Shown in pieces: positions 23,129 to 50,262 of a stretch of DNA of 50,332 nucleotides. Positions within the stretch are counted from its first letter, which is position 1; each line of letters starts with the position of its first letter. The DNA is from a virus, in IMG/VR virus record IMGVR_UViG_3300042090_001664, positions 1-50,332 of that record; one strand, 5' to 3'. Made by a program: the position numbers and the translations under genes. Below the pieces are notes generated by a model that saw only the letters and a list, made by a program, of their open reading frames with translations, was not told where the DNA came from and searched no databases.

Positions 23129-23139
23129 TAGAAGGCGTC

Positions 23140-23778
23140 ATGGACGACACCACCACCAACCCTGCCGCATCCCCCGCTGTCTCGTACCCGAGGCTCGTCT
23201 TCGGTCACCCGGTCCGCCCGCCGTTCTCGGTCGGCGCCGCCGACTTCACGCCCACCCCGAAGGGCCGGCTCGCGCGGATCGACGCCGCGCTCCGCGAGGC
23301 CGGCGGCGTCGCGCAGGCGCGCTACCGCGAGTGGTGCGAGCAGGAGACCAAAGACCAGGAGCAGGAGGACCGCGCACCGCGGCCGCCGCCGCTCATCCTG
23401 GTCTGTTGCGCCGACTCGACCATCGGCAGGTCGCTGATCGATGCGGGTCGGCCTGGGCTCAGCGGGCAGGTCTGCGGCCCGGTCGTCATGCTGCTTCACG
23501 TGCAGGAGCTCCTCCAGCTGTTCCAGGCGAGCGCGCAGAGCATCATGCAGGAGCTGAGCGCGCTCGAGGCGAAGCCCGGCCAGCCCGTGTGGGGCTTCGC
23601 GGTGAACGGCAACCTGTTCGACTTCCGCGTGATGACCGTCGAGACCGCACCGCCGGCGCCAACGGCCCCCGCCGAGGCAGCCAAGCCTGAGCCAGTGATC
23701 GTTCCGCCTGCGCCGCCCGAGGAGCCCGCGCCGACCATCGAGGTCGAGCCGGCCGGAGAGCCCGCCGCGGCAACGTGA
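23140..23778 (+). CDS. Hypothetical protein with a Pro/Ala-rich tail
   Basis: ATG at 23140 after GAAGG; its stop codon forms part of the IS target TGAC. Confidence 0.6.
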   Translation: MDDTTTNPAASPAVSYPRLVFGHPVRPPFSVGAADFTPTPKGRLARIDAALREAGGVAQARYREWCEQETKDQEQEDRAPRPPPLILVCCADSTIGRSLIDAGRPGLSGQVCGPVVMLLHVQELLQLFQASAQSIMQELSALEAKPGQPVWGFAVNGNLFDFRVMTVETAPPAPTAPAEAAKPEPVIVPPAPPEEPAPTIEVEPAGEPAAAT

Positions 23779-23849: not shown

Positions 23850-24257
23850 CTAGTCCGGTCTCTTCTGGTTTTCGACGTACCGCTTGAGGATCTCGATCGG
23901 TGCTCCGCCCGCGGAGATGATGCAGTAGCTCGGCGACCAGAGGACGGCTTTCCCGCGGTACGCCACGCGGAGCGCGGGAAACTCGGAGCGGAGCCTACGG
24001 GAGAGCACGGTTTTGATGTTGTTGGTGAGGTCGCTGGGTCGGACCTTGGGAGGCATGTCGAGGAGCATGTGCACGTGGTCGGCTTCGCCCGAGCATTCGA
24101 CCAGTTCGCCTTGCCAGGCGACGCAGAGGCTCGTGAGGATCTCCTTGCAGCGGTCGAGCATCGGGTTGGTGAAGACGCGGCGGCGGTACTTGGAGACGAG
24201 AACCAAGTGGTAGACGAGACGGAAAACGGCGTTGTTGTTGCGGTGGAGTGCTTGCAT
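23850..24257 (-). CDS. tnpA: Y1 HUH transposase TnpA
   Basis: LVYHLVLVSKYRR, DHVH (HUH), LWSPSY, catalytic Tyr in KRYVENQ. Confidence 0.95.
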   Translation of the reverse strand: MQALHRNNNAVFRLVYHLVLVSKYRRRVFTNPMLDRCKEILTSLCVAWQGELVECSGEADHVHMLLDMPPKVRPSDLTNNIKTVLSRRLRSEFPALRVAYRGKAVLWSPSYCIISAGGAPIEILKRYVENQKRPD

Positions 24258-24286
24258 GAGTCTACCGAACGAAGTACATCGTACGC

Positions 24287-25447
24287 GTGGTCCGCGTCTA
24301 CCGCTACCGGCTCAGCCCCACGCGGGCTCAGGAAGCCGCGATGCACGGGACGCTCTACCGGCTGCGTGAGCTTTACAACGCGGCGCTCGAGGAGCGGATC
24401 AAGGCGTACCGCCAGCGCGGCGTCACGCTCTCGGCATACGACCAGATGGCCGAGCTGCGCGAGGTCCGCGAGGTCCGGCCCGAGTACGCCGCCATCCACA
24501 CGCACCTGCTCCAAGACGCGCTCACGCGGCTCGAGCGCGCGATGCGGGCGTTCTTTCGACGGATCAAGTCGGGCGAGAAGCCCGGGTTCCCTCGCTTCAA
24601 GGGTCGCGACCGCTACTCGACGTTCACGTTCAAGGACGCCGCGAACCACAACGGCGTGCGGCTCATGGCCGGCGGCAAGCGGGTCAAGCTCACCGGGATC
24701 GGCAACGTCAAGATCAAGCTGCACCGGCCTCTCCAGGGTCGGATCAAGCAGGCCAGCGTTTCGCTCGATGGCGACGGCCACTGGTACATCGCCTTCGTCT
24801 GCCAGGACGTGCCGACGAAGCCCCTGCCCGCAACCGGAGCGAGCGTCGGCGTGGACGTCGGCATCACGACCTTCGCGGCGCTCTCGACCGGCGAGTGCAT
24901 CGACAACCCACGGCCCTACGAGACCGCTCACCGGAAGCTCGCTGCTGCCCAGCAACGCGTCTCCCGACGGAAGAAGGGCTCGCGACGGCGCCGCAAGGCC
25001 GTCGCGCTGCTCCGCAAGCACCATGCGCACGTGGGTCGCGTGCGGCTCGACTTTCACCACAAGGTGGCGCTCTACCTGGTTGAGCACTTCGATTCCATCT
25101 CGGTGGAGAAGCTCAACATCAAGGGCCTCGCGCTCTCGTCGCTGGCCCTGCAAGTTCTCGATGCCGCGTGGGGCCAGTTCACGACGATTGTCGACGGCAA
25201 GGCAGAATGGGCCGGTCGCGACTTCAACGCCGTGGACCCACGTGGGACCTCCCAGGAATGCTCCGGCTGCGGCGCGTTGGTCCGAAAGGATCTTCGCGTT
25301 CGCGTCCACCGCTGCCCGCACTGCGGGCTGGTGCTGGACCGCGACGTCAACGCCGGAATCAACATCGATCGGCGTGGACAGCGCCTTCGGAGGCAGAAGA
25401 GCGCTGGGGCTCTTGCTGTTCCGAGAAGCCGCTCCCTCGCGCTTTGA
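24287..25447 (+). CDS. tnpB: RNA-guided endonuclease TnpB
   Basis: YRYRL N-terminus, GFPRFK, RuvC D (GVDVG), E (VEKL), D (DRDVNA), and CSGC/CPHC zinc finger. Confidence 0.95.
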   Translation: MVRVYRYRLSPTRAQEAAMHGTLYRLRELYNAALEERIKAYRQRGVTLSAYDQMAELREVREVRPEYAAIHTHLLQDALTRLERAMRAFFRRIKSGEKPGFPRFKGRDRYSTFTFKDAANHNGVRLMAGGKRVKLTGIGNVKIKLHRPLQGRIKQASVSLDGDGHWYIAFVCQDVPTKPLPATGASVGVDVGITTFAALSTGECIDNPRPYETAHRKLAAAQQRVSRRKKGSRRRRKAVALLRKHHAHVGRVRLDFHHKVALYLVEHFDSISVEKLNIKGLALSSLALQVLDAAWGQFTTIVDGKAEWAGRDFNAVDPRGTSQECSGCGALVRKDLRVRVHRCPHCGLVLDRDVNAGINIDRRGQRLRRQKSAGALAVPRSRSLAL

Positions 25448-27726: not shown

Positions 27727-28020
27727 TCAGTAGGTGACGAAGTAGACGATTTCGGTGGCCGAACCGCACTCGACGGAACCAACCGAACCGCGGAATTGAA
27801 CGGAAGCCTCAGCGGCAGTGATGCCGTTCGGCGATGGCGTACCGTCGAGCAAAGCTCGCACCTTTGCGAGGGTCGCCGGATCGCTCGTGCCGAAATCGTA
27901 GGAAGCGGTGCCGTCGGGACCGCACGCAACAGCGTGCTCGTCATCGGATCCTAGCCCACCGCAACCGGCGAGTAGGGCTGCCGCCGCCACCGCAACCACC
28001 AACATCATCGTCCACTTCAT
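27727..28020 (-). CDS. Antisense lipoprotein (candidate superinfection exclusion or receptor blocker)
   Basis: MKW, hydrophobic stretch and LAGC lipobox; RBS AGGAG; has its own promoter. Confidence 0.75.
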   Translation of the reverse strand: MKWTMMLVVAVAAAALLAGCGGLGSDDEHAVACGPDGTASYDFGTSDPATLAKVRALLDGTPSPNGITAAEASVQFRGSVGSVECGSATEIVYFVTY

Positions 28021-28048
28021 GGTCGTCTCCTGGGGCCCGGTCGGGCCC

Positions 28049-28091
28049 TGTCGTCCTCGAGAAGCGTACGGCTGCGCACGCAGCCTCTCAA
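28049..28091 (-). promoter_or_regulatory. Sigma70-like promoter A
   Basis: On -: TTGAGA-17nt-TACGCT-6nt-GGACGACA; spacer palindrome GGCTGC-N4-GCAGCC. Confidence 0.7.
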
Positions 28092-44465: not shown

Positions 44466-44639
44466 TTACTTGCTCGCATTGGGGCCATCGTTCACGCGCA
44501 TCGAACAGTCGGCCCCATAGCTTGTGCCGTCGATGCCGATCTGGTTCGCCCCCCTCGGCACGGTGATGCGCAGGGTGACCGGCGGGATGTAGAGTGCGGG
44601 CGGCGCCGGCGCGGCCTTCGGCTGCTTCGTCTTCTTCAC
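44466..44639 (-). CDS. Small hypothetical protein
   Basis: GGAGG RBS before GTG at 44639; directly downstream of promoter B. Confidence 0.55.
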   Translation of the reverse strand: MKKTKQPKAAPAPPALYIPPVTLRITVPRGANQIGIDGTSYGADCSMRVNDGPNASK

Positions 44640-44649
44640 GTGTCCTCCA

Positions 44650-44720
44650 GCGCATCGGCGTGGCCGTGCGCGTGCTTGTCGTCCGGGGCTGTAGTGTAAC
44701 GATCCGACTGCGGATCTCAA
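44650..44720 (-). promoter_or_regulatory. Sigma70-like promoter B plus leader hairpin
   Basis: On -: TTGAGA-16nt-TACACT-8nt-GGACGACAAGCACGCGCACG; palindrome GATCCG-N4-CGGATC at 44701-44716. Confidence 0.7.
44665..44684. repeat. 20-bp exact repeat, copy 1 (copy 2 at 50205-50224)
   Basis: CGTGCGCGTGCTTGTCGTCC at both positions. Confidence 0.95.
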
Positions 44721-45538
44721 GCGACATTCGCCGCGGTTGGCGCGAGTCTCGCGAGGAGGTTCTCTCGCCACTCGAGGGACCATGACGCGCAGTTGTTGCA
44801 ATGCTGGTGGCCGGTCTTCCGACCGAAGCCGGGCTTGTCGTGGCCCTCGAGCGGGGGCCGGTGGCGCGCGGCGTCGCTCCACGCCATCGAGTCGGCCGAC
44901 GCGAGCTCGCCGGCGCACGCCTCGAGCCCGTCGACCTTGAAGCCGAAGCCGTGGAGGCGCAGCCCGTCGACCGCCAGCGTGTGGATGATGGTCTTGCCGG
45001 TGAGGGTGTCCTGCCGACGGCAGACCGTGCCGACCCCGACGAGCGGCTCGGCGCGCAGGTCGACCCCTGCCTTGTCGTAGAGCTCCTGGCACGTCCAGTA
45101 GGAGCCGATGCTCCAGCCCTGGAGCACGGGGATGAATGGGATGTCGGGCGCGAGCGCGCGCAGCTCGAGGAAGTTGTCCACGGTGCGGCGCTGGTGCTCC
45201 TCTACCGAGAGGCCGGTGCCGGCGAACGTCACCCCCTTGTGCGTGCCGCCGTGGATCACGACCGGCTCACACATCCAATCGCCGGGCGCAGCGAACAGCA
45301 GGCCCCCGATCTCGTCGCGGTACCGGCGCACCTCGGCAACGTACTCCTTCGCACTGATGGTCCAGCGCCCGTGCATCTGGAGCTCGGAGAAGCCGCCCGA
45401 GTCGAGCGCCCATTCGCCGAAGGCGCGCGGGAGCTTCTTGACCTGCGAGAGCGTCCGGCGCGAGACGAACAGCGGCACGTCGAGAAAGCGCGCATCCTCG
45501 AGCCAGTGCGGCTTCGCCGTTCCGAGCATGAAACGCAT
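44717..45538 (-). CDS. dpdA: DpdA-like (TGT-fold) 7-deazaguanine DNA transglycosylase
   Basis: WALDSGGFS, DWMCEP, IPVLQG, VGVGTVCRR, LHGFG and SADSMAWS motifs. Confidence 0.75.
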   Translation of the reverse strand: MRFMLGTAKPHWLEDARFLDVPLFVSRRTLSQVKKLPRAFGEWALDSGGFSELQMHGRWTISAKEYVAEVRRYRDEIGGLLFAAPGDWMCEPVVIHGGTHKGVTFAGTGLSVEEHQRRTVDNFLELRALAPDIPFIPVLQGWSIGSYWTCQELYDKAGVDLRAEPLVGVGTVCRRQDTLTGKTIIHTLAVDGLRLHGFGFKVDGLEACAGELASADSMAWSDAARHRPPLEGHDKPGFGRKTGHQHCNNCASWSLEWRENLLARLAPTAANVA

Positions 45539-45541
45539 GGT

Positions 45542-45763
45542 CTACTCCTCGTCGATGGTGGGTGGTGGCGGTCGCGGTGGCATCGCGGTCGTCTTCTCGG
45601 GTGCGTGCTGCGCGCATCGGGTGCCACGCGCGTGGTCGGCACACATCGGCCGCGCGCAGCGCACGCCGCCCGGGCCGGCGCCGTCGCAGGCGCGCACCGC
45701 GGGCTGGCCGCAGCGGTAGCAGTCGGGTCGTCGTCGGCCGCAGATGAAAACGTCGATGCTCAC
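45542..45763 (-). CDS. Small Cys/His Zn-finger protein
   Basis: CYRC...CD...C..PMCADH...CAQH. Confidence 0.6.
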   Translation of the reverse strand: MSIDVFICGRRRPDCYRCGQPAVRACDGAGPGGVRCARPMCADHARGTRCAQHAPEKTTAMPPRPPPPTIDEE

Positions 45764-46023
45764 GAGACCGCCTCGCGGTCCGGCTCCTCGCGCCGGAGCC
45801 CGCGAATGTAGAGCTTCCAGCGGAGCGCCTCGGTCGCCGTCCCCGCCATGAGGACGTAGCGGGTCGCCACGTCGGGTTGGACGGCCTCCGCCGCCACGGG
45901 CTCGAGGTCGAGCGTCACGGTGCCGGCGCCGCTACGGTGGAAGAACACCATGGCGCCACAGCGGGAACAGCTCCCGACGTGGGGCGCCGTCCCTCCGTCG
46001 GCGATGCGCTTGCGGATCTTCAC
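45760..46023 (-). CDS. Hypothetical protein (CSRC ribbon)
   Basis: Likely GTG at 46023, coupled via a 26-codon ORF at 46020-46100. Confidence 0.5.
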   Translation of the reverse strand: MKIRKRIADGGTAPHVGSCSRCGAMVFFHRSGAGTVTLDLEPVAAEAVQPDVATRYVLMAGTATEALRWKLYIRGLRREEPDREAVS

Positions 46024-46096
46024 TTGGCCTCCGGCACCAGCCACGGATCGCCAGCGATGGAAGCATCGCCGGTGAAGCGCCAGGGTGACGCGCTGT

Positions 46097-47092
46097 TCAC
46101 GACGTCTTCCCGAGAGCTTCGCAAGGATCGCCAAACATCGCCAACGTCTTACCTTTCGCGTTCGGTTCGGCGGCGGCCAGGTTGCGTGCCGCCATCTGGT
46201 AGTAGCTGGCCTTCAGCTCGGCGCCGACGAAGCGCCGACCCTCTTGCAAGGCGACGTAGCCCTCACTGCCGATGCCTGCGAAGGGCGAAAGCACGACATC
46301 ACCGGGCGCCGTCCATAGTCGGATGGCGCGTCGGATGACGCCGAGTTGAAGCGGTGCGATGTGACGCTCGTCATCGCCATCCCTGGCCGCCATGTATTGC
46401 AGCGTGTCGCCTTGGTCGATACCGCTTGCGTCCGTCTCGGTGTCGCCCTTGCGCGGGTTGCGGAAGGCTGTGAAACCCTCGCCATCTTCGCCTTCCGAGG
46501 TCGCCCAGACGGGGCTGGCGTACCGTTGCCATCGCTCGACGGGGAAGTCGTCGTGCGTGTGGCTGATGGGCTTCGTGTTCTCGCCGGGCTTCACCACGAC
46601 GACGAGGTAGTCGGCCATCCCCTGCCGTGACGCAACAGAGTCCTTGCGAAGCTGCATGTGAAGCAGCCCCTTCGCCTTCGTTCGCTGCATCTGCATGACG
46701 GGGTCCTTCCAGATCGTGACTTCGCTGTGGAAGACGAACCCGGCCGCCTGAGCGGCTCGGATCATCTCGCCGCGGAAGTCGCGCAGCCCGATGTAGCCGT
46801 CGCGCACCTTGCTCGTCGGAATCAGCATGCAATGGATCGCCATCAGCCGACCGGGGCGAAGCACGCGAAACAGCGACGGCATCAAGTGACCGAAGTGCTC
46901 CCCAAATTCGCCGTGAGTGCGACAATTTCCAAGGTCGCGGTCGGAGTTGGAGTAGCAGTAAAGGAATGCGAAGGGCGGCGAATACACCGAGAAGTCGATC
47001 GACGACTCAGGGAGCGATGCGCACACTTCGACCGTGTCGGCGTTGTAGAGATGCCAGCCATTGCCACTGGCCTGATCGAGAACCTTGGTCAT
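46097..47092 (-). CDS. DNA methyltransferase, N4-C/N6-A beta class
   Basis: Catalytic SPPF motif N-terminal to the SAM-binding motif VLSPFAGIGS. Confidence 0.9.
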   Translation of the reverse strand: MTKVLDQASGNGWHLYNADTVEVCASLPESSIDFSVYSPPFAFLYCYSNSDRDLGNCRTHGEFGEHFGHLMPSLFRVLRPGRLMAIHCMLIPTSKVRDGYIGLRDFRGEMIRAAQAAGFVFHSEVTIWKDPVMQMQRTKAKGLLHMQLRKDSVASRQGMADYLVVVVKPGENTKPISHTHDDFPVERWQRYASPVWATSEGEDGEGFTAFRNPRKGDTETDASGIDQGDTLQYMAARDGDDERHIAPLQLGVIRRAIRLWTAPGDVVLSPFAGIGSEGYVALQEGRRFVGAELKASYYQMAARNLAAAEPNAKGKTLAMFGDPCEALGKTS

Positions 47093-48495
47093 GGAGCCTC
47101 TGGTCCGGTTCGGACCCATTGGGGGACCGTCATCGTGACGGTCGGTTCGTAGGCGTCTGTCTCTCGTTCGGCGCCGCGCACGTTGTGGCGCACGGTCGCT
47201 GCCGTGTAGCGCCGCATCTCGTCGGCGAGCTTCGTCGCGTCGGCTTCCTTGCGGCGTAGATTGGCCAACACGGCGCCTTCCAACTCCGCGACGATGATGT
47301 GACTGTGAACCTCGCGAGTCTGGCCAAACCGCCAGTTACGACGCACCGCCTGGTACCACTGCTCGAAGCTGTGAGAGACACCGACGAATAGGGACCGTGC
47401 GCAATGCTGGGCATTTACGCCGAACCCGGCGACGCTCGGCTTGGTTACGATAACCCGTGACCGACCGTGCAGCCAGTCGACCATGCGCGCCCGCTTCTCG
47501 GTTGGGGTCATGGCGCCCGTGATCTCAACGGCGCCGTGAATGGCCGCCGTAAGGGCCTCGCTCTCGGCGTTTAGCTCGCACCATACCATCCACGATTCCG
47601 TCGGCTCCGATGCGACGACATCGGCCGCGAGTCGAACGCGGTCCTTCATCGAAGCACGCCGAGCATCGCGTTGCTCGCCGAGCGTGATAGCTGGCGCAGC
47701 GAAGAGGAGCCCATGCGCTCGCGCCTGCTCGGCCGTGGCGGCGACGCGGTGCTCGTGCATGACGAGCGGCGGCAGGTCGTAGCCGATGTCGTCGTAGCCG
47801 ATGTCGGACGGACGCTTGACAAGTGCCGCCCACGAGCAAACCCAGCGCCAGAATGCTTCTCGCGCGTGGCCCTTGATGTACCAGTCCTGCGTGCTGCCGC
47901 CGTCGTGGGCGAAGAACATGGCCAGCATCTCGGTGCGTCGCATGACGCCCAAGAACTCTGCATGATTGCCAAGCTCGGTGAAGTCGTTCGGAGACGGTGT
48001 TGCCGTGCATGCGAGCCGGTACGGCGTCGCCGCGAAGCTATCGATCATGGCCGTGCGCGTCTCCCCGTCGCTCGACTTGAGGATCGATGATTCGTCGAGC
48101 ACGACGCCAACGAACGCCGCCGGGTCGAAGTGATCGCGCATCTCATAGTTCGTGATGAGGATCGGGGCGTCCGACTCGGCAAGCGACCGCGCGTAGACGA
48201 CCGGGACGCCGATGGCGGCACCTTCCTCGACAGTCTGCTCTGAGACGGCAAGCGGCGCGAAGATGATGATGCGACCCTTCGTTCGCTTCGCGACCTGAGC
48301 CGCCCACATGAGCTGCATGCGGCTCTTCCCGAGCCCGGTGTCGGCGAACAGGGCCGCGCGCCCGCGTCGCAGCGCCCACGTCGTCAGGTCGGCCTGGAAG
48401 GGGAAAAGATGCGGGGACTCGATGGTTCTGCGCAGCTTGAACCCGGCGACCGGCGCGACGAGAGCCTTGGTGCGTAGAAAATCCTGATAGCTCAC
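47089..48495 (-). CDS. SNF2-like superfamily 2 helicase
   Basis: DTGLGKS, ITNYE, LDESS, TATPSPN, GFGVN, QAVRRNWRFGQ. Confidence 0.9.
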   Translation of the reverse strand: MSYQDFLRTKALVAPVAGFKLRRTIESPHLFPFQADLTTWALRRGRAALFADTGLGKSRMQLMWAAQVAKRTKGRIIIFAPLAVSEQTVEEGAAIGVPVVYARSLAESDAPILITNYEMRDHFDPAAFVGVVLDESSILKSSDGETRTAMIDSFAATPYRLACTATPSPNDFTELGNHAEFLGVMRRTEMLAMFFAHDGGSTQDWYIKGHAREAFWRWVCSWAALVKRPSDIGYDDIGYDLPPLVMHEHRVAATAEQARAHGLLFAAPAITLGEQRDARRASMKDRVRLAADVVASEPTESWMVWCELNAESEALTAAIHGAVEITGAMTPTEKRARMVDWLHGRSRVIVTKPSVAGFGVNAQHCARSLFVGVSHSFEQWYQAVRRNWRFGQTREVHSHIIVAELEGAVLANLRRKEADATKLADEMRRYTAATVRHNVRGAERETDAYEPTVTMTVPQWVRTGPEAP

Positions 48496-49007
48496 GTCGC
48501 CTCGTAGCCCGGATCGCAGGTGTCACACCATGCTCCCGGCTTGACACTGCGGCCTTCCGCCGTGGGATCGGCGACGACATGCGTCGACAGTTCTCCGCAG
48601 CCGTCGCATACGAACCACTTCAGCGCGTTGAACGCGACGCGTGCAATGGGTTTTTGGTCCGTGTCGGGGTGAGACTTGTGAGCGAGATCGTCCAGGTTGG
48701 GCAGCCAACGCGTCGCCACCTCGACGGGCGTGTCGGCAAGGACGTTCAGCAGAAGCGCAAGCGCGTGAGCGTTGGATGCCTTCGCGAGCTCGCCAGCCCG
48801 CACGAGGATGGCGCAGAGCTGTTCCTCACCCTCAACATCGTGGCGAACACGTGCCGTGAGGTCGGAAAGCGTCATCGTCGCGATCACGCCGACATCTGCC
48901 CCATGGCTCACGTTGTGCTCCGTCTGCGAGTCCGTGGACGCGCCCAGTTCGTCACGATCGACCAGATATTTGTCGAAGAACCCGGCCAAATTCTCGAACG
49001 TCGTCAT
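48492..49007 (-). CDS. Hypothetical protein
   Basis: RBS GAGGAG before ATG at 49007; C-terminal CxxC pairs. Confidence 0.55.
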   Translation of the reverse strand: MTTFENLAGFFDKYLVDRDELGASTDSQTEHNVSHGADVGVIATMTLSDLTARVRHDVEGEEQLCAILVRAGELAKASNAHALALLLNVLADTPVEVATRWLPNLDDLAHKSHPDTDQKPIARVAFNALKWFVCDGCGELSTHVVADPTAEGRSVKPGAWCDTCDPGYEAT

Positions 49008-49054
49008 GTGATCTCTCCTCGGTGAATGATTGTCGCCCATGTCGCGCGCTCCCA

Positions 49055-49348
49055 TCATGCGCCCGCCTCCCTTGCAGCGAGTTGCTCCGCGAGCGTCCCG
49101 TGAATGTCGTAGGCAGACGGCTTAGGAGCCTCGAGCGGCTCGGCCCAGAAGCGGCGCCCGTCGTGGCGGTGCGCGGCGGTGAGGATGCGCGCGACCCGCT
49201 CCGCGTCGTCCTGGAGCAGCGGAGGTCGCGCGCGGTCGACGCGGGGTAGCCGGTCGATGACCCGGAAAGATGCGCCGTCCACGCCGACCCGGCCGAGGCT
49301 CGAGCCGGGCGCGTCGCGCGAGCACACCACGAAGAGGGTGGGCGTCAT
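49055..49348 (-). CDS. Hypothetical protein
   Basis: ATGA-coupled start at 49348. Confidence 0.5.
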   Translation of the reverse strand: MTPTLFVVCSRDAPGSSLGRVGVDGASFRVIDRLPRVDRARPPLLQDDAERVARILTAAHRHDGRRFWAEPLEAPKPSAYDIHGTLAEQLAAREAGA

Positions 49349-49521
49349 CGCGGCCTCAGCAGCATGACGCACTTCTTCCCGTCACTGGCGTCTTCGAGGA
49401 CCACGTCGGCGCACTCGCCGGTGCAGTCGCACCCCTCGGTGAAGACGGGCGCGTCTGGCGGCATCTGCCGCAACCGCTCGATGAGCTGTGCCACGGTGAG
49501 GGTGTCGGTGTCGTCGCTCAT
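49345..49521 (-). CDS. Small phage protein (TVAQLIERLRQMPPDAPV type)
   Basis: Common small phage protein motif; coupled overlaps. Confidence 0.6.
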   Translation of the reverse strand: MSDDTDTLTVAQLIERLRQMPPDAPVFTEGCDCTGECADVVLEDASDGKKCVMLLRPR

Positions 49522-50150
49522 CGGAGATGCTCCTGAAGGTTGGTGCAGTCGTAGCTCTTCGTCTTGCCGCGGATGAACGCGTCGAGCGCGCTGGCGTTGA
49601 CGACCTGGACCACGCGCGCAGCCTTCGGCTCGTCGGTGCACTTGCGGGCGTCGAAGATGTGCGCGACGTCGATCCCGTAGTGGCAGAGCGGCTCCGGCAA
49701 GTCCGGCGTCCAGAACGACCCGCGCACCGAAATCTGGTGGTGGCGGTGACAATCGGCGGGGGCCGATTCCTGGCACATGAGCACGAGCCGATGGCCGGCG
49801 GCGTACCAGGTCCGGAGCGTGTGGATCCCCTCCGGGCGAGGCCCCGGCACTCCGCCCCCCGGCCCGCCGAGCACGTGCCCCGCGTAGCGGTAGCGGGAGC
49901 CGAGCGCGTCGGCGAGCTGGTAGCGCCTGAAACCGTCTCTGACATAGAGCGGCTTCCGGCTCCCCGCCGGCGGCGCATGCTCGGGACCGGCCAACGCCCG
50001 GCAGTCGACGAGCACAGCCTTCAGGCCGAGCACGATGTTGAACAGGTCCTGCGGCTCATCGAGCGAGCCAGGCTGGCGCTTGCTCCCCTTGTACGGCGCG
50101 TCGCCGTAGCCGATCGAAAATAGAATCCCCGGCGTCTTCTTCTTCGTCAT
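49518..50150 (-). CDS. DUF488-family protein
   Basis: FSIGYG, VLVDCR, YRY...LGG, LMCQE..P..CHR. Confidence 0.75.
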   Translation of the reverse strand: MTKKKTPGILFSIGYGDAPYKGSKRQPGSLDEPQDLFNIVLGLKAVLVDCRALAGPEHAPPAGSRKPLYVRDGFRRYQLADALGSRYRYAGHVLGGPGGGVPGPRPEGIHTLRTWYAAGHRLVLMCQESAPADCHRHHQISVRGSFWTPDLPEPLCHYGIDVAHIFDARKCTDEPKAARVVQVVNASALDAFIRGKTKSYDCTNLQEHLR

Positions 50151-50168
50151 CGTCCCTCCGATGGTACA

Positions 50169-50262
50169 ACGCATCGACCCCGGCGCCGAGAGTCGGCCCG
50201 AGGTCGTGCGCGTGCTTGTCGTCCTCGGAGCAAGGTAGCGCTCCGCGGGTGACCTGTCACCC
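50169..50262 (-). promoter_or_regulatory. Sigma70-like promoter C plus long leader hairpin
   Basis: On -: GTGACA-17nt-TACCTT-7nt-GGACGACAAGCACGCGCACG; palindrome GGGTGAC-N2-GTCACCC at 50247-50262. Confidence 0.65.
50205..50224. repeat. 20-bp exact repeat, copy 2
   Basis: Identical to 44665-44684. Confidence 0.95.

Follow-up and report, generated by a model that had tools for sequence, protein, structure and literature searches.

Do the leaders of early genes in a G+C-rich phage carry a single composite RNA signal, or distinct signals that lie close together? The question is raised by three leaders (A, B and C) on the minus strand of the window analyzed here, i.e., the 50,332-nucleotide stretch that forms the first 50.3 kb of an 82.3-kb virus record (IMGVR_UViG_3300042090_001664, termed G000; 69% G+C, completeness estimate 53%). 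An earlier note on this DNA had proposed that the leaders share one conserved, nut/put-like RNA motif composed of a 13-nt single-stranded box, a basal stem and a bulged A. Comparison with two complete phages indicated that the feature is real but is not one bulged-A RNA; rather, the leaders consist of two separable elements, namely a seven-nucleotide box (GGACGAC) at promoter-like sites and a family of GC-rich hairpins with a bulged G, located ahead of Shine-Dalgarno (SD) words. All functional steps proposed below are inferred from sequence comparison of three phages.

G000 encodes a major capsid protein, an exonuclease, a helicase, a methyltransferase and transposase-like genes. Since relatives of its capsid protein (33-45% identity) sit in Sorangium and Polyangiaceae genomes, we infer a host among the Polyangiaceae (myxobacteria). 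Two complete phages were used for comparison, G001 (162.8 kb), whose capsid protein is 73% identical to that of G000, and G407 (155.6 kb; 40% identical), which was picked up by the hairpin pattern only. The three appear to be distantly related phages with myxobacteria as their likely hosts, and a scan with a conserved structural protein revealed no fourth. Leaders B and C lie inside a long minus-strand early region that extends from about 60 kb down to 38 kb. Gene content between shared anchors differs strongly among G000, G001 and G407, and the shared genes stay collinear.

Leaders A, B and C and their promoters

The letters and folds drawn earlier for leaders B (44650-44684, minus strand) and C (50169-50224, minus strand) were confirmed, as was leader A (28033-28056, minus strand), which carries GGACGACA (eight shared letters) and a 6-bp hairpin. 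Each leader is followed by a ribosome-binding site (GGAGG or AGGAG) and then a start codon (Table 1). B and C have an exact 20-mer in common, and these two leaders contain the only exact matches to the 13-nt box in the window. The letters of both leaders were identical in contigs of the probable source run, which are not independent. Two features that the earlier note did not mention are the sigma70-type -35 and -10 hexamers directly upstream of all three leaders and 14 further long hairpins past the window end. In A, B and C, the -35 is within one mismatch of TTGACA, the spacer measures 16-17 nt, and the -10 reads TAnnnT. Pairs of such hexamers 16-18 nt apart occurred at only 4 of the 164 TAnnnT words in the G000 genome, and leaders A, B and C account for three of these. 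No sigma70 region-2 domain was found in G000, G001 or G407.

The GGACGAC box at predicted transcription starts

A box site was scored as strict when TAnnnT was followed 5-10 nt later by GGACGAC, and the reversed pattern served as control. The box lay 6-9 nt past the -10 in all three phages. G000 contained six strict sites versus 0.24 expected (P = 2e-7), and GGACGAC was the top-ranked of 892 seven-mers at the position following TAnnnT. In G001, four strict sites and no control sites were found; all four are gene starts that read ATG-GAC-GAC and lack a family hairpin. The box prediction also held in G407, where eight strict sites were found versus 0.42 expected, the control gave none, and GGACGAC was again the top-ranked seven-mer. 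With a relaxed -10, the three phages yielded 28 sites, of which three were dropped for lack of a gene within 4 kb, leaving 25 gene-linked sites (the three dropped sites are still counted in the test and in the spacing means).

Seventeen of the gene-linked sites head leaders. In these, a long or short GC-rich hairpin and an SD-like word come after the box, which lies 36-80 nt upstream of the start codon. The remaining eight are leaderless, i.e., the box forms part of ATG-GAC-GAC within codons 1-3. The mean distance between the -10 and the box was 7.2 nt for leadered sites (strays included) and 8.4 nt for leaderless sites; given these spacings, starts ~6-7 nt past the -10, at the first G of the box or at the A of ATG, would be consistent with both forms. 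The 13-nt box of the earlier note is exact in B and C, but only seven nucleotides are invariant over the 25 sites, with A as the eighth in 10 of 17 leaders. The first 9 nt were T-free in 15 of 17 leaders. In G001, ATGGAC opens 6 of 15 leaderless-type genes as compared to 5 of 171 other ATG genes. One orthologous gene begins with Met-Asp-Asp in two phages and with Met-Thr-Thr in the third, and GACGAC is kept throughout; the constraint therefore appears to be at the nucleotide level. We consider it most likely that the box marks the 5' end of the transcript and has its effect at initiation. In four prophage-bearing regions (396 kb), a single box site was found versus about 1.4 expected.

Two box loci outside the window have features of their own. 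Back-to-back box promoters lie beside a DUF5131 gene in G000 (C1:78,738-78,880), and the same divergent pair occurs in G407 at about 68,540-68,610. In G001, a leaderless box start opens the gene (C1:89,775-90,632, minus strand) for a second, 285-aa protein that shares 34% identity with the major capsid protein over 176 aa.

The box might instead be a DNA operator that covers the start site and allows a phage repressor or activator to time promoters. The box is tied to promoters whatever the leader type, is phage-specific, and is asymmetric and oriented, and G001 encodes LexA-like and helix-turn-helix proteins. However, it is only 7 bp long and non-palindromic, GGACGAC occurs 40, 100 and 73 times in the three genomes, mostly inside genes, and its spacing to the -10 varies by 3 bp. 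BLAST comparisons found no helix-turn-helix regulator common to all three phages (G000 being only about 53% complete), and we regard an operator as decidedly unlikely. A different candidate operator, or bidirectional promoter, is present in G001, where the motif TGCTAGACA(GTG) occurs at about 50 sites (e.g., C1:6,910-6,930 and C1:127,707-127,727), often as an inverted pair 10-14 nt apart. The TGCTAGACA motif overlaps an extended -10 and was not seen in G000.

A hairpin family with a bulged G

The C-type hairpin recurs past the window end in the gaps between early genes. A first model (14 training copies) detected 15 hairpins in G000 and 33-34 in G001, while a second detected 39 in G001 (E up to 0.06), 22 in G407 and one in an unrelated-looking record (G006). 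Among 49 copies, 87% of the cells were paired versus 72% after shuffling, with 133 versus 44 two-sided changes. For the G407 set, which was not used in training and includes two weak rows, the figures were 94% and 75% paired. The earlier idea of a conserved cis-acting signal stands in that homologues were found in two complete relatives (G001 and G407) and covariation of the long hairpin is strong; the single motif of box, basal stem and bulged A does not. The 3' bulged G was present in 44 of the 47 copies that could be parsed (of 49) and in 21 of 22 copies from G407, or 65 of 69. In contrast, the bulged A proposed as the conserved feature was not retained, since its GATGCG junction was limited to C itself among the family hairpins (1 of 49, and 0 of 22 from G407).

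On the sense strand, G-U pairs outnumbered A-C pairs (31 vs. 10), and the commonest loops were UUCG and GCAA (9 and 6 of 47, respectively); folding as sense-strand RNA is therefore favored. Nearly all copies were intergenic with respect to called genes (69 of 71) and carried an SD-like word (66 of 71), and 46 of 71 start no more than 6 nt from the upstream stop. The helix comprises at least 11 pairs in 61 of 69 parsed copies, C included; those of B (9 pairs) and A (6 pairs) are shorter. As regards a possible terminator function like that of PeSL stem-loops, a run of at least four U's was present in 1 of the first 18 copies scanned. Fold stability relative to shuffled sequences was pronounced for C (z = -4.4) and slight for B alone (z = -1.7; 16 of 200 shuffles equally good). 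B scored marginally against both hairpin models (19.9 bits, E = 0.057 for the first; 16.8 bits, E = 1.4 for the second). Since it also lacks the bulged G, B looks like a shortened relative of the long family, and it was probably derived by copying from a C-like leader.

The idea that box and hairpin form one combined RNA motif is not supported: the eight leaderless boxes lack a family hairpin, most hairpins lack a box (box promoters accompany only a minority of the long hairpins), and the invariant bulge is a G that is absent from B. A separate 59-nt segment, 86% identical between G001 (C1:~148,590-148,650) and G407 (C1:~91,535-91,595), lies in non-coding hubs upstream of the hairpin arrays, and no match to it was found in the G000 hub.

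Further copies were scarce elsewhere. Searches with Rfam 15 of the window, the neighboring 16 kb and the hairpin arrays of two relatives gave no match at the gathering threshold. An exact 18-mer had two matches in viral contigs, both apparently coding and neither with a family hairpin behind it, which we attribute to chance. A first hairpin pattern gave five loci, none with an array, and a third gave four, of which one was real (G407) and three had no arrays. Hairpin model R1 was positive in one of 21 other records and genomes, i.e., the single copy in G006; for the six cellular genomes in that search, only 150 candidates were scored each, so that blanks there mean little. The four prophage-bearing regions held no hairpin array (best, 24.3 bits), nothing was found in three metagenome loci, and when leaders B and C were compared with annotated phages by BLAST, only chance matches of 25-26 nt came up. 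In a literature search that left most subscription papers outside, we found no published description of a GGACGAC phage promoter box, a leaderless initially transcribed motif or such RNase III stem-loops. New here are the promoter box, its leaderless form, and G407 as a 22-copy phage that carries both box and hairpin.

Three other roles for these elements were weighed. According to the first, the promoter-box-hairpin-SD units are cassettes like the PeSL units of T4-like phages and would mainly offer homologous stretches through which genes are gained and lost in a hyperplastic early region. The layout agrees, with a stop, promoter, stem-loop, SD and ATG, stems with G/C tracts, and inverted repeats in the spacers (cf. 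PMC2839356), and so do the strong differences in gene content between anchors, the 20-mer shared by B and C, and the Sak4-like gene (a weak match) after B. However, copies were no more alike within a genome (58% and 53% identity) than between genomes (55%), with a median longest exact match of 7-8 nt, a pattern that fits selection at each site rather than recent copying. Most hairpins also lack a promoter, pairing rather than sequence is conserved, and shared genes are collinear. We rate a recombinational purpose as very unlikely; recombination may occur as a side effect.

The second role, a put/nut-like element in which box and stem modify the elongating RNA polymerase for terminator read-through, had been put forward in the earlier note, and we consider it highly improbable. 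Leaders B and C are promoter-proximal like putL and head long early operons, and a candidate Arg-rich RNA-binding protein is encoded beside the hub. Yet the put element requires a pair of stems spanning about 70 nt (PMC9378689), whereas a single hairpin precedes the SD in B and C. Single genes and leaderless genes are headed by the box as well, the 15-39 hairpin copies per operon are unlike a persistent modification, and the bulged A is not conserved. No match to boxA (up to one mismatch) was found in leaders A, B or C and none to boxB in G000. An exact 15-nt match to lambda boxB lies inside coding sequence in G407 (C1:~62,606-62,620, minus strand) and is most likely due to chance.

The third role, in which the long hairpins would resemble attC and act in a gene-cassette array as sites for recombination of single-stranded DNA, is scarcely credible. 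The gene-hairpin-gene arrangement, the extrahelical G and a GTT that often closes the 3' arm match the anatomy of attC sites, but folding favors the sense strand with RNA-type loops, no AAC triplet is conserved, and shared genes are collinear. This candidate was rejected because no tyrosine recombinase/integrase was found in G000, G001, G006 or G407, two of which are complete.

Proposed mechanism and comparison with known systems

We give roughly even chances to a joint reading in which the box tunes initiation after a sigma70-type promoter and the GC-rich hairpin before the SD acts later, on the mRNA, in processing or protection. Since box and hairpin each occur without the other, and the box falls within the first 9-10 nt of the predicted transcript, the box would act at initiation. 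Within these nucleotides, it would occupy the initial RNA-DNA hybrid, free of U and ahead of any hairpin folding, and could tune promoter escape so as to favor productive initiation by the host RNA polymerase. Slow-escaping initial sequences have T's in the first ~7 bp (PMC5961368). The long hairpins (C type, at least 11 pairs around the bulged G) would be single-cut sites of the RNase III type and would split the early polycistron into pieces with protected ends. E. coli RNase III needs a helix of at least 11 bp, and a bulge or loop can limit the enzyme to a single cut, which leaves a protective 3' hairpin (PMC1540722). The short hairpins (B and A; 5-9 pairs) are too short for cutting, and their role would be confined to hindering decay in the 5'-to-3' direction and to keeping the SD accessible. 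RNase III is encoded in both Polyangiaceae genomes examined and in none of the three phage records. The C-terminal domain of RNase J occurs in 6 of 6 host-family genomes and was not found in the phage records searched. CarD-type domains (a domain family that also covers Mfd) are found in host-family genomes, and CarD reportedly slows promoter escape (PMC6648326).

Several observations weigh against this joint reading. On the side of the box, the relaxed -10 set was partly chosen after sites had been seen, leaderless enrichment was weaker in G407 (2 of 13 vs. 6 of 180), and most of the ~50 promoter-like TGCTAGAC sites of G001 have no box. At a further box site, D, the -35 is poor and the -10 shares letters with a stop codon. 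Nor was the box pattern commoner than its control in the other sequences searched (six cellular genomes and 15 virus records); because the cellular genomes showed no excess, the box is not a general host promoter feature. In addition, energetics explains a U-free, purine-rich start, but not one exact 7-mer, which hints at a sequence-specific reading. On the side of the hairpin, both covariation alignments were fitted to the model. The near-invariant bulged G and the basal GCGC/CGU, with no two-sided pair changes, go beyond the known needs of RNase III, about 76% of the stem pairs are G-C, and in only 33 of 71 copies could a register be found that lacks the antideterminants of E. coli RNase III (G-C pairs at proximal-box positions 2 and 4, as coded here, on predicted folds).

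Because energetics alone does not demand an exact 7-mer, an RNA tag, like the operator discussed above, stays a real rival. The box could be a 5'-terminal tag and/or the bulged-G hairpin a binding site, by which a phage RNA-binding protein would stabilize phage mRNAs or favor their translation. The candidate reader is a protein with a PHAX RNA-binding domain and an Arg-rich C-terminal tail, encoded beside the control hub in all three phages. The distance between the predicted 5' end and the conserved, exact 7-mer hardly varies, and the bulged G and basal letters of the hairpin are invariant. The PHAX-like gene is similarly placed in the three phages, its product matches PHAX structures in sequence, and in G000 it has a box promoter. 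The single-stranded state claimed earlier for the box was borne out in part, in that the box is predicted to be unpaired in 13 of 17 leaders but partly paired in 4. In leaderless mRNAs, moreover, the box would sit under the initiating ribosome, and since the PHAX-like domain is widespread (725 representatives), presence of the gene is not specific. We consider such a tag unlikely, though it deserves serious attention. A fuller version, in which a PHAX-like protein reads a two-part mRNA license composed of the GGACGAC 5' tag (leadered and leaderless) and the bulged-G hairpin before most early cistrons, seems to us improbable. If true, the code would represent use of a domain of the small nuclear RNA-export type by a bacterial virus for selective mRNA handling.

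Two additional candidates were dropped. For pairing between the hairpins and abortive transcripts of the box (cf. PMC2952870), no full complement is evident in the hairpin alignment, and a CsrA/RsmA site was abandoned because the upstream CA is not conserved.

Returning to the joint reading of box and hairpin, initially transcribed sequences are known to change promoter output, and PMC5961368 gives base preferences and no shared motif. A 7-mer kept at 25 promoter-like sites of three divergent phages, even in start codons, is a direct test case. The hairpin family provides about 70 natural variants of one fold in which the bulge is invariant, a substrate set for a Myxococcota RNase III or a phage RNA-binding protein. 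Box and hairpin might also be possible expression parts for Polyangiaceae, if the host inference is true.

Table 1. Positions of leader, promoter and associated features (window coordinates unless a record is named).
Feature	Position	Strand	Remarks
Promoter B, -35 hexamer TTGAGA	44715..44720	-	Overlaps TGA stop of upstream queuine-tRNA-ribosyltransferase-like gene
Promoter B, spacer with 6-bp inverted repeat	44701..44716	-	May be due to chance
Promoter B, -10 hexamer TACACT	44693..44698	-	16-nt spacer
Box B, core GGACGAC	44678..44684	-	8 nt past -10; 13-nt form common with C reaches 44672
Short hairpin B	44650..44671	-	9 pairs, bulged A at 44655; basal GCGCAC of long family, no bulged G
SD GGAGG and GTG of 57-aa open reading frame (ORF)	44637..44648	-	Followed by AAA/Sak4-like gene and, further on, exonuclease gene
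Promoter C, -35 hexamer GTGACA	50255..50260	-	Overlaps TGA stop of upstream ORF
Promoter C, -10 hexamer TACCTT	50232..50237	-	17-nt spacer
Box C, core GGACGAC	50218..50224	-	7 nt past -10
Long hairpin C	50169..50211	-	19 pairs; bulged A at 50174 is private to C, bulged G at 50184 is that of the family; 55.5 bits (training member)
SD GGAGG and ATG of 210-aa ORF of unknown function	50148..50159	-	Homologues in both relatives (G001, G407)
Promoter A: TTGAGA, 17 nt with 7-bp inverted repeat, TACGCT	28063..28091	-	
Box A, GGACGACA	28049..28056	-	6 nt past -10
Hairpin A (6 bp), SD AGGAG, ATG of lone 97-aa ORF	28018..28048	-	Counter-oriented ORF in tail region
Candidate leaderless box start: weak -10-like TAGAAG, then ATG-GAC-GAC	23129..23148	+	G001 and G407 orthologues keep (G/T)GACGAC
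PHAX-RNA-binding-domain protein, RRRP C-terminal motif	G000 C1:61,529-62,221; G001 C1:134,575-135,348; G407 C1:88,379-89,134		Head of replication operon

Other features were observed in and around the window. The queuine-tRNA-ribosyltransferase-like gene directly upstream of promoter B (44717-45538, minus strand) is also present in G407 and may indicate deazaguanine DNA modification. A divergent pair of transposase-family genes is inserted in the tail region (23850-25447), which from their size we take to be IS200/IS605 TnpA and a TnpB-like gene. Ahead of the DnaB operon lie tandem repeats of the AAGCAAACC type (G000 C1:63,520-63,610), which are possible origin iterons. Two tRNA genes (Ala-cgc and Cys-gca) with a tRNA-like stretch between them lie at G000 C1:77,069-77,357. 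Outside the window, at G000 C1:76,620-77,024 (plus strand) and G001 C1:137,324-137,725 (minus strand), a promoter-like site precedes a 6-codon ORF that ends in CGC-TGA. A stretch nearly identical in the two phages comes next, and the Pth2-like frame downstream lies in the +1 frame without a start of its own, a candidate for a prfB-like +1 frameshift; the motif was not found in G407.

The two elements resemble several known systems and differ from each. The RNase III hairpins of phage T7 early mRNA sit just upstream of ribosome-binding sites in the early polycistron, in about five copies. The hairpins described here share this placement and, like R1.1 and its minimal substrate (PMC1540722), have at least 11 pairs, an internal loop or bulge, and tetraloops that include GCAA. 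In contrast to T7, there are 15-39 copies, about 76% G-C pairs, a near-invariant bulged G and a basal stem of 3-4 bp with fixed letters; E. coli antideterminants are often present, B and A are too short, and cleavage is predicted only. HK022 put, a suppressor of termination that binds the beta-prime zinc-binding domain, and lambda nut are likewise promoter-proximal structured RNAs of early operons, but here a single stem of variable length occurs in high copy number without boxA or boxB. The PeSL cassettes similarly combine a sigma70 promoter, a stem-loop and an SD in one intergenic unit (as in A, B and C) within a gene-variable early region. In PeSLs, most stem-loops are located within the promoter and serve as terminators (PMC2839356, PMC4122927), whereas here the main hairpin is downstream of the predicted start, a fixed box lies at the predicted +1, and neither an AT-rich upstream tract nor homogenization is seen. 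The box agrees with the initially transcribed sequence effects of PMC5961368 in that the first ~10 bases are U-poor and purine-rich; those are base preferences, whereas here one 7-mer recurs at leadered and leaderless promoter-like sites of three phages. Finally, the SAS/ESAS elements of cluster K mycobacteriophages (PMC3203893) are also short, asymmetric, oriented repeats near gene starts that are conserved across a phage group. However, SAS is a 13-mer immediately upstream of gene starts, while the box is a 7-mer of unrelated sequence located at the predicted transcript start.

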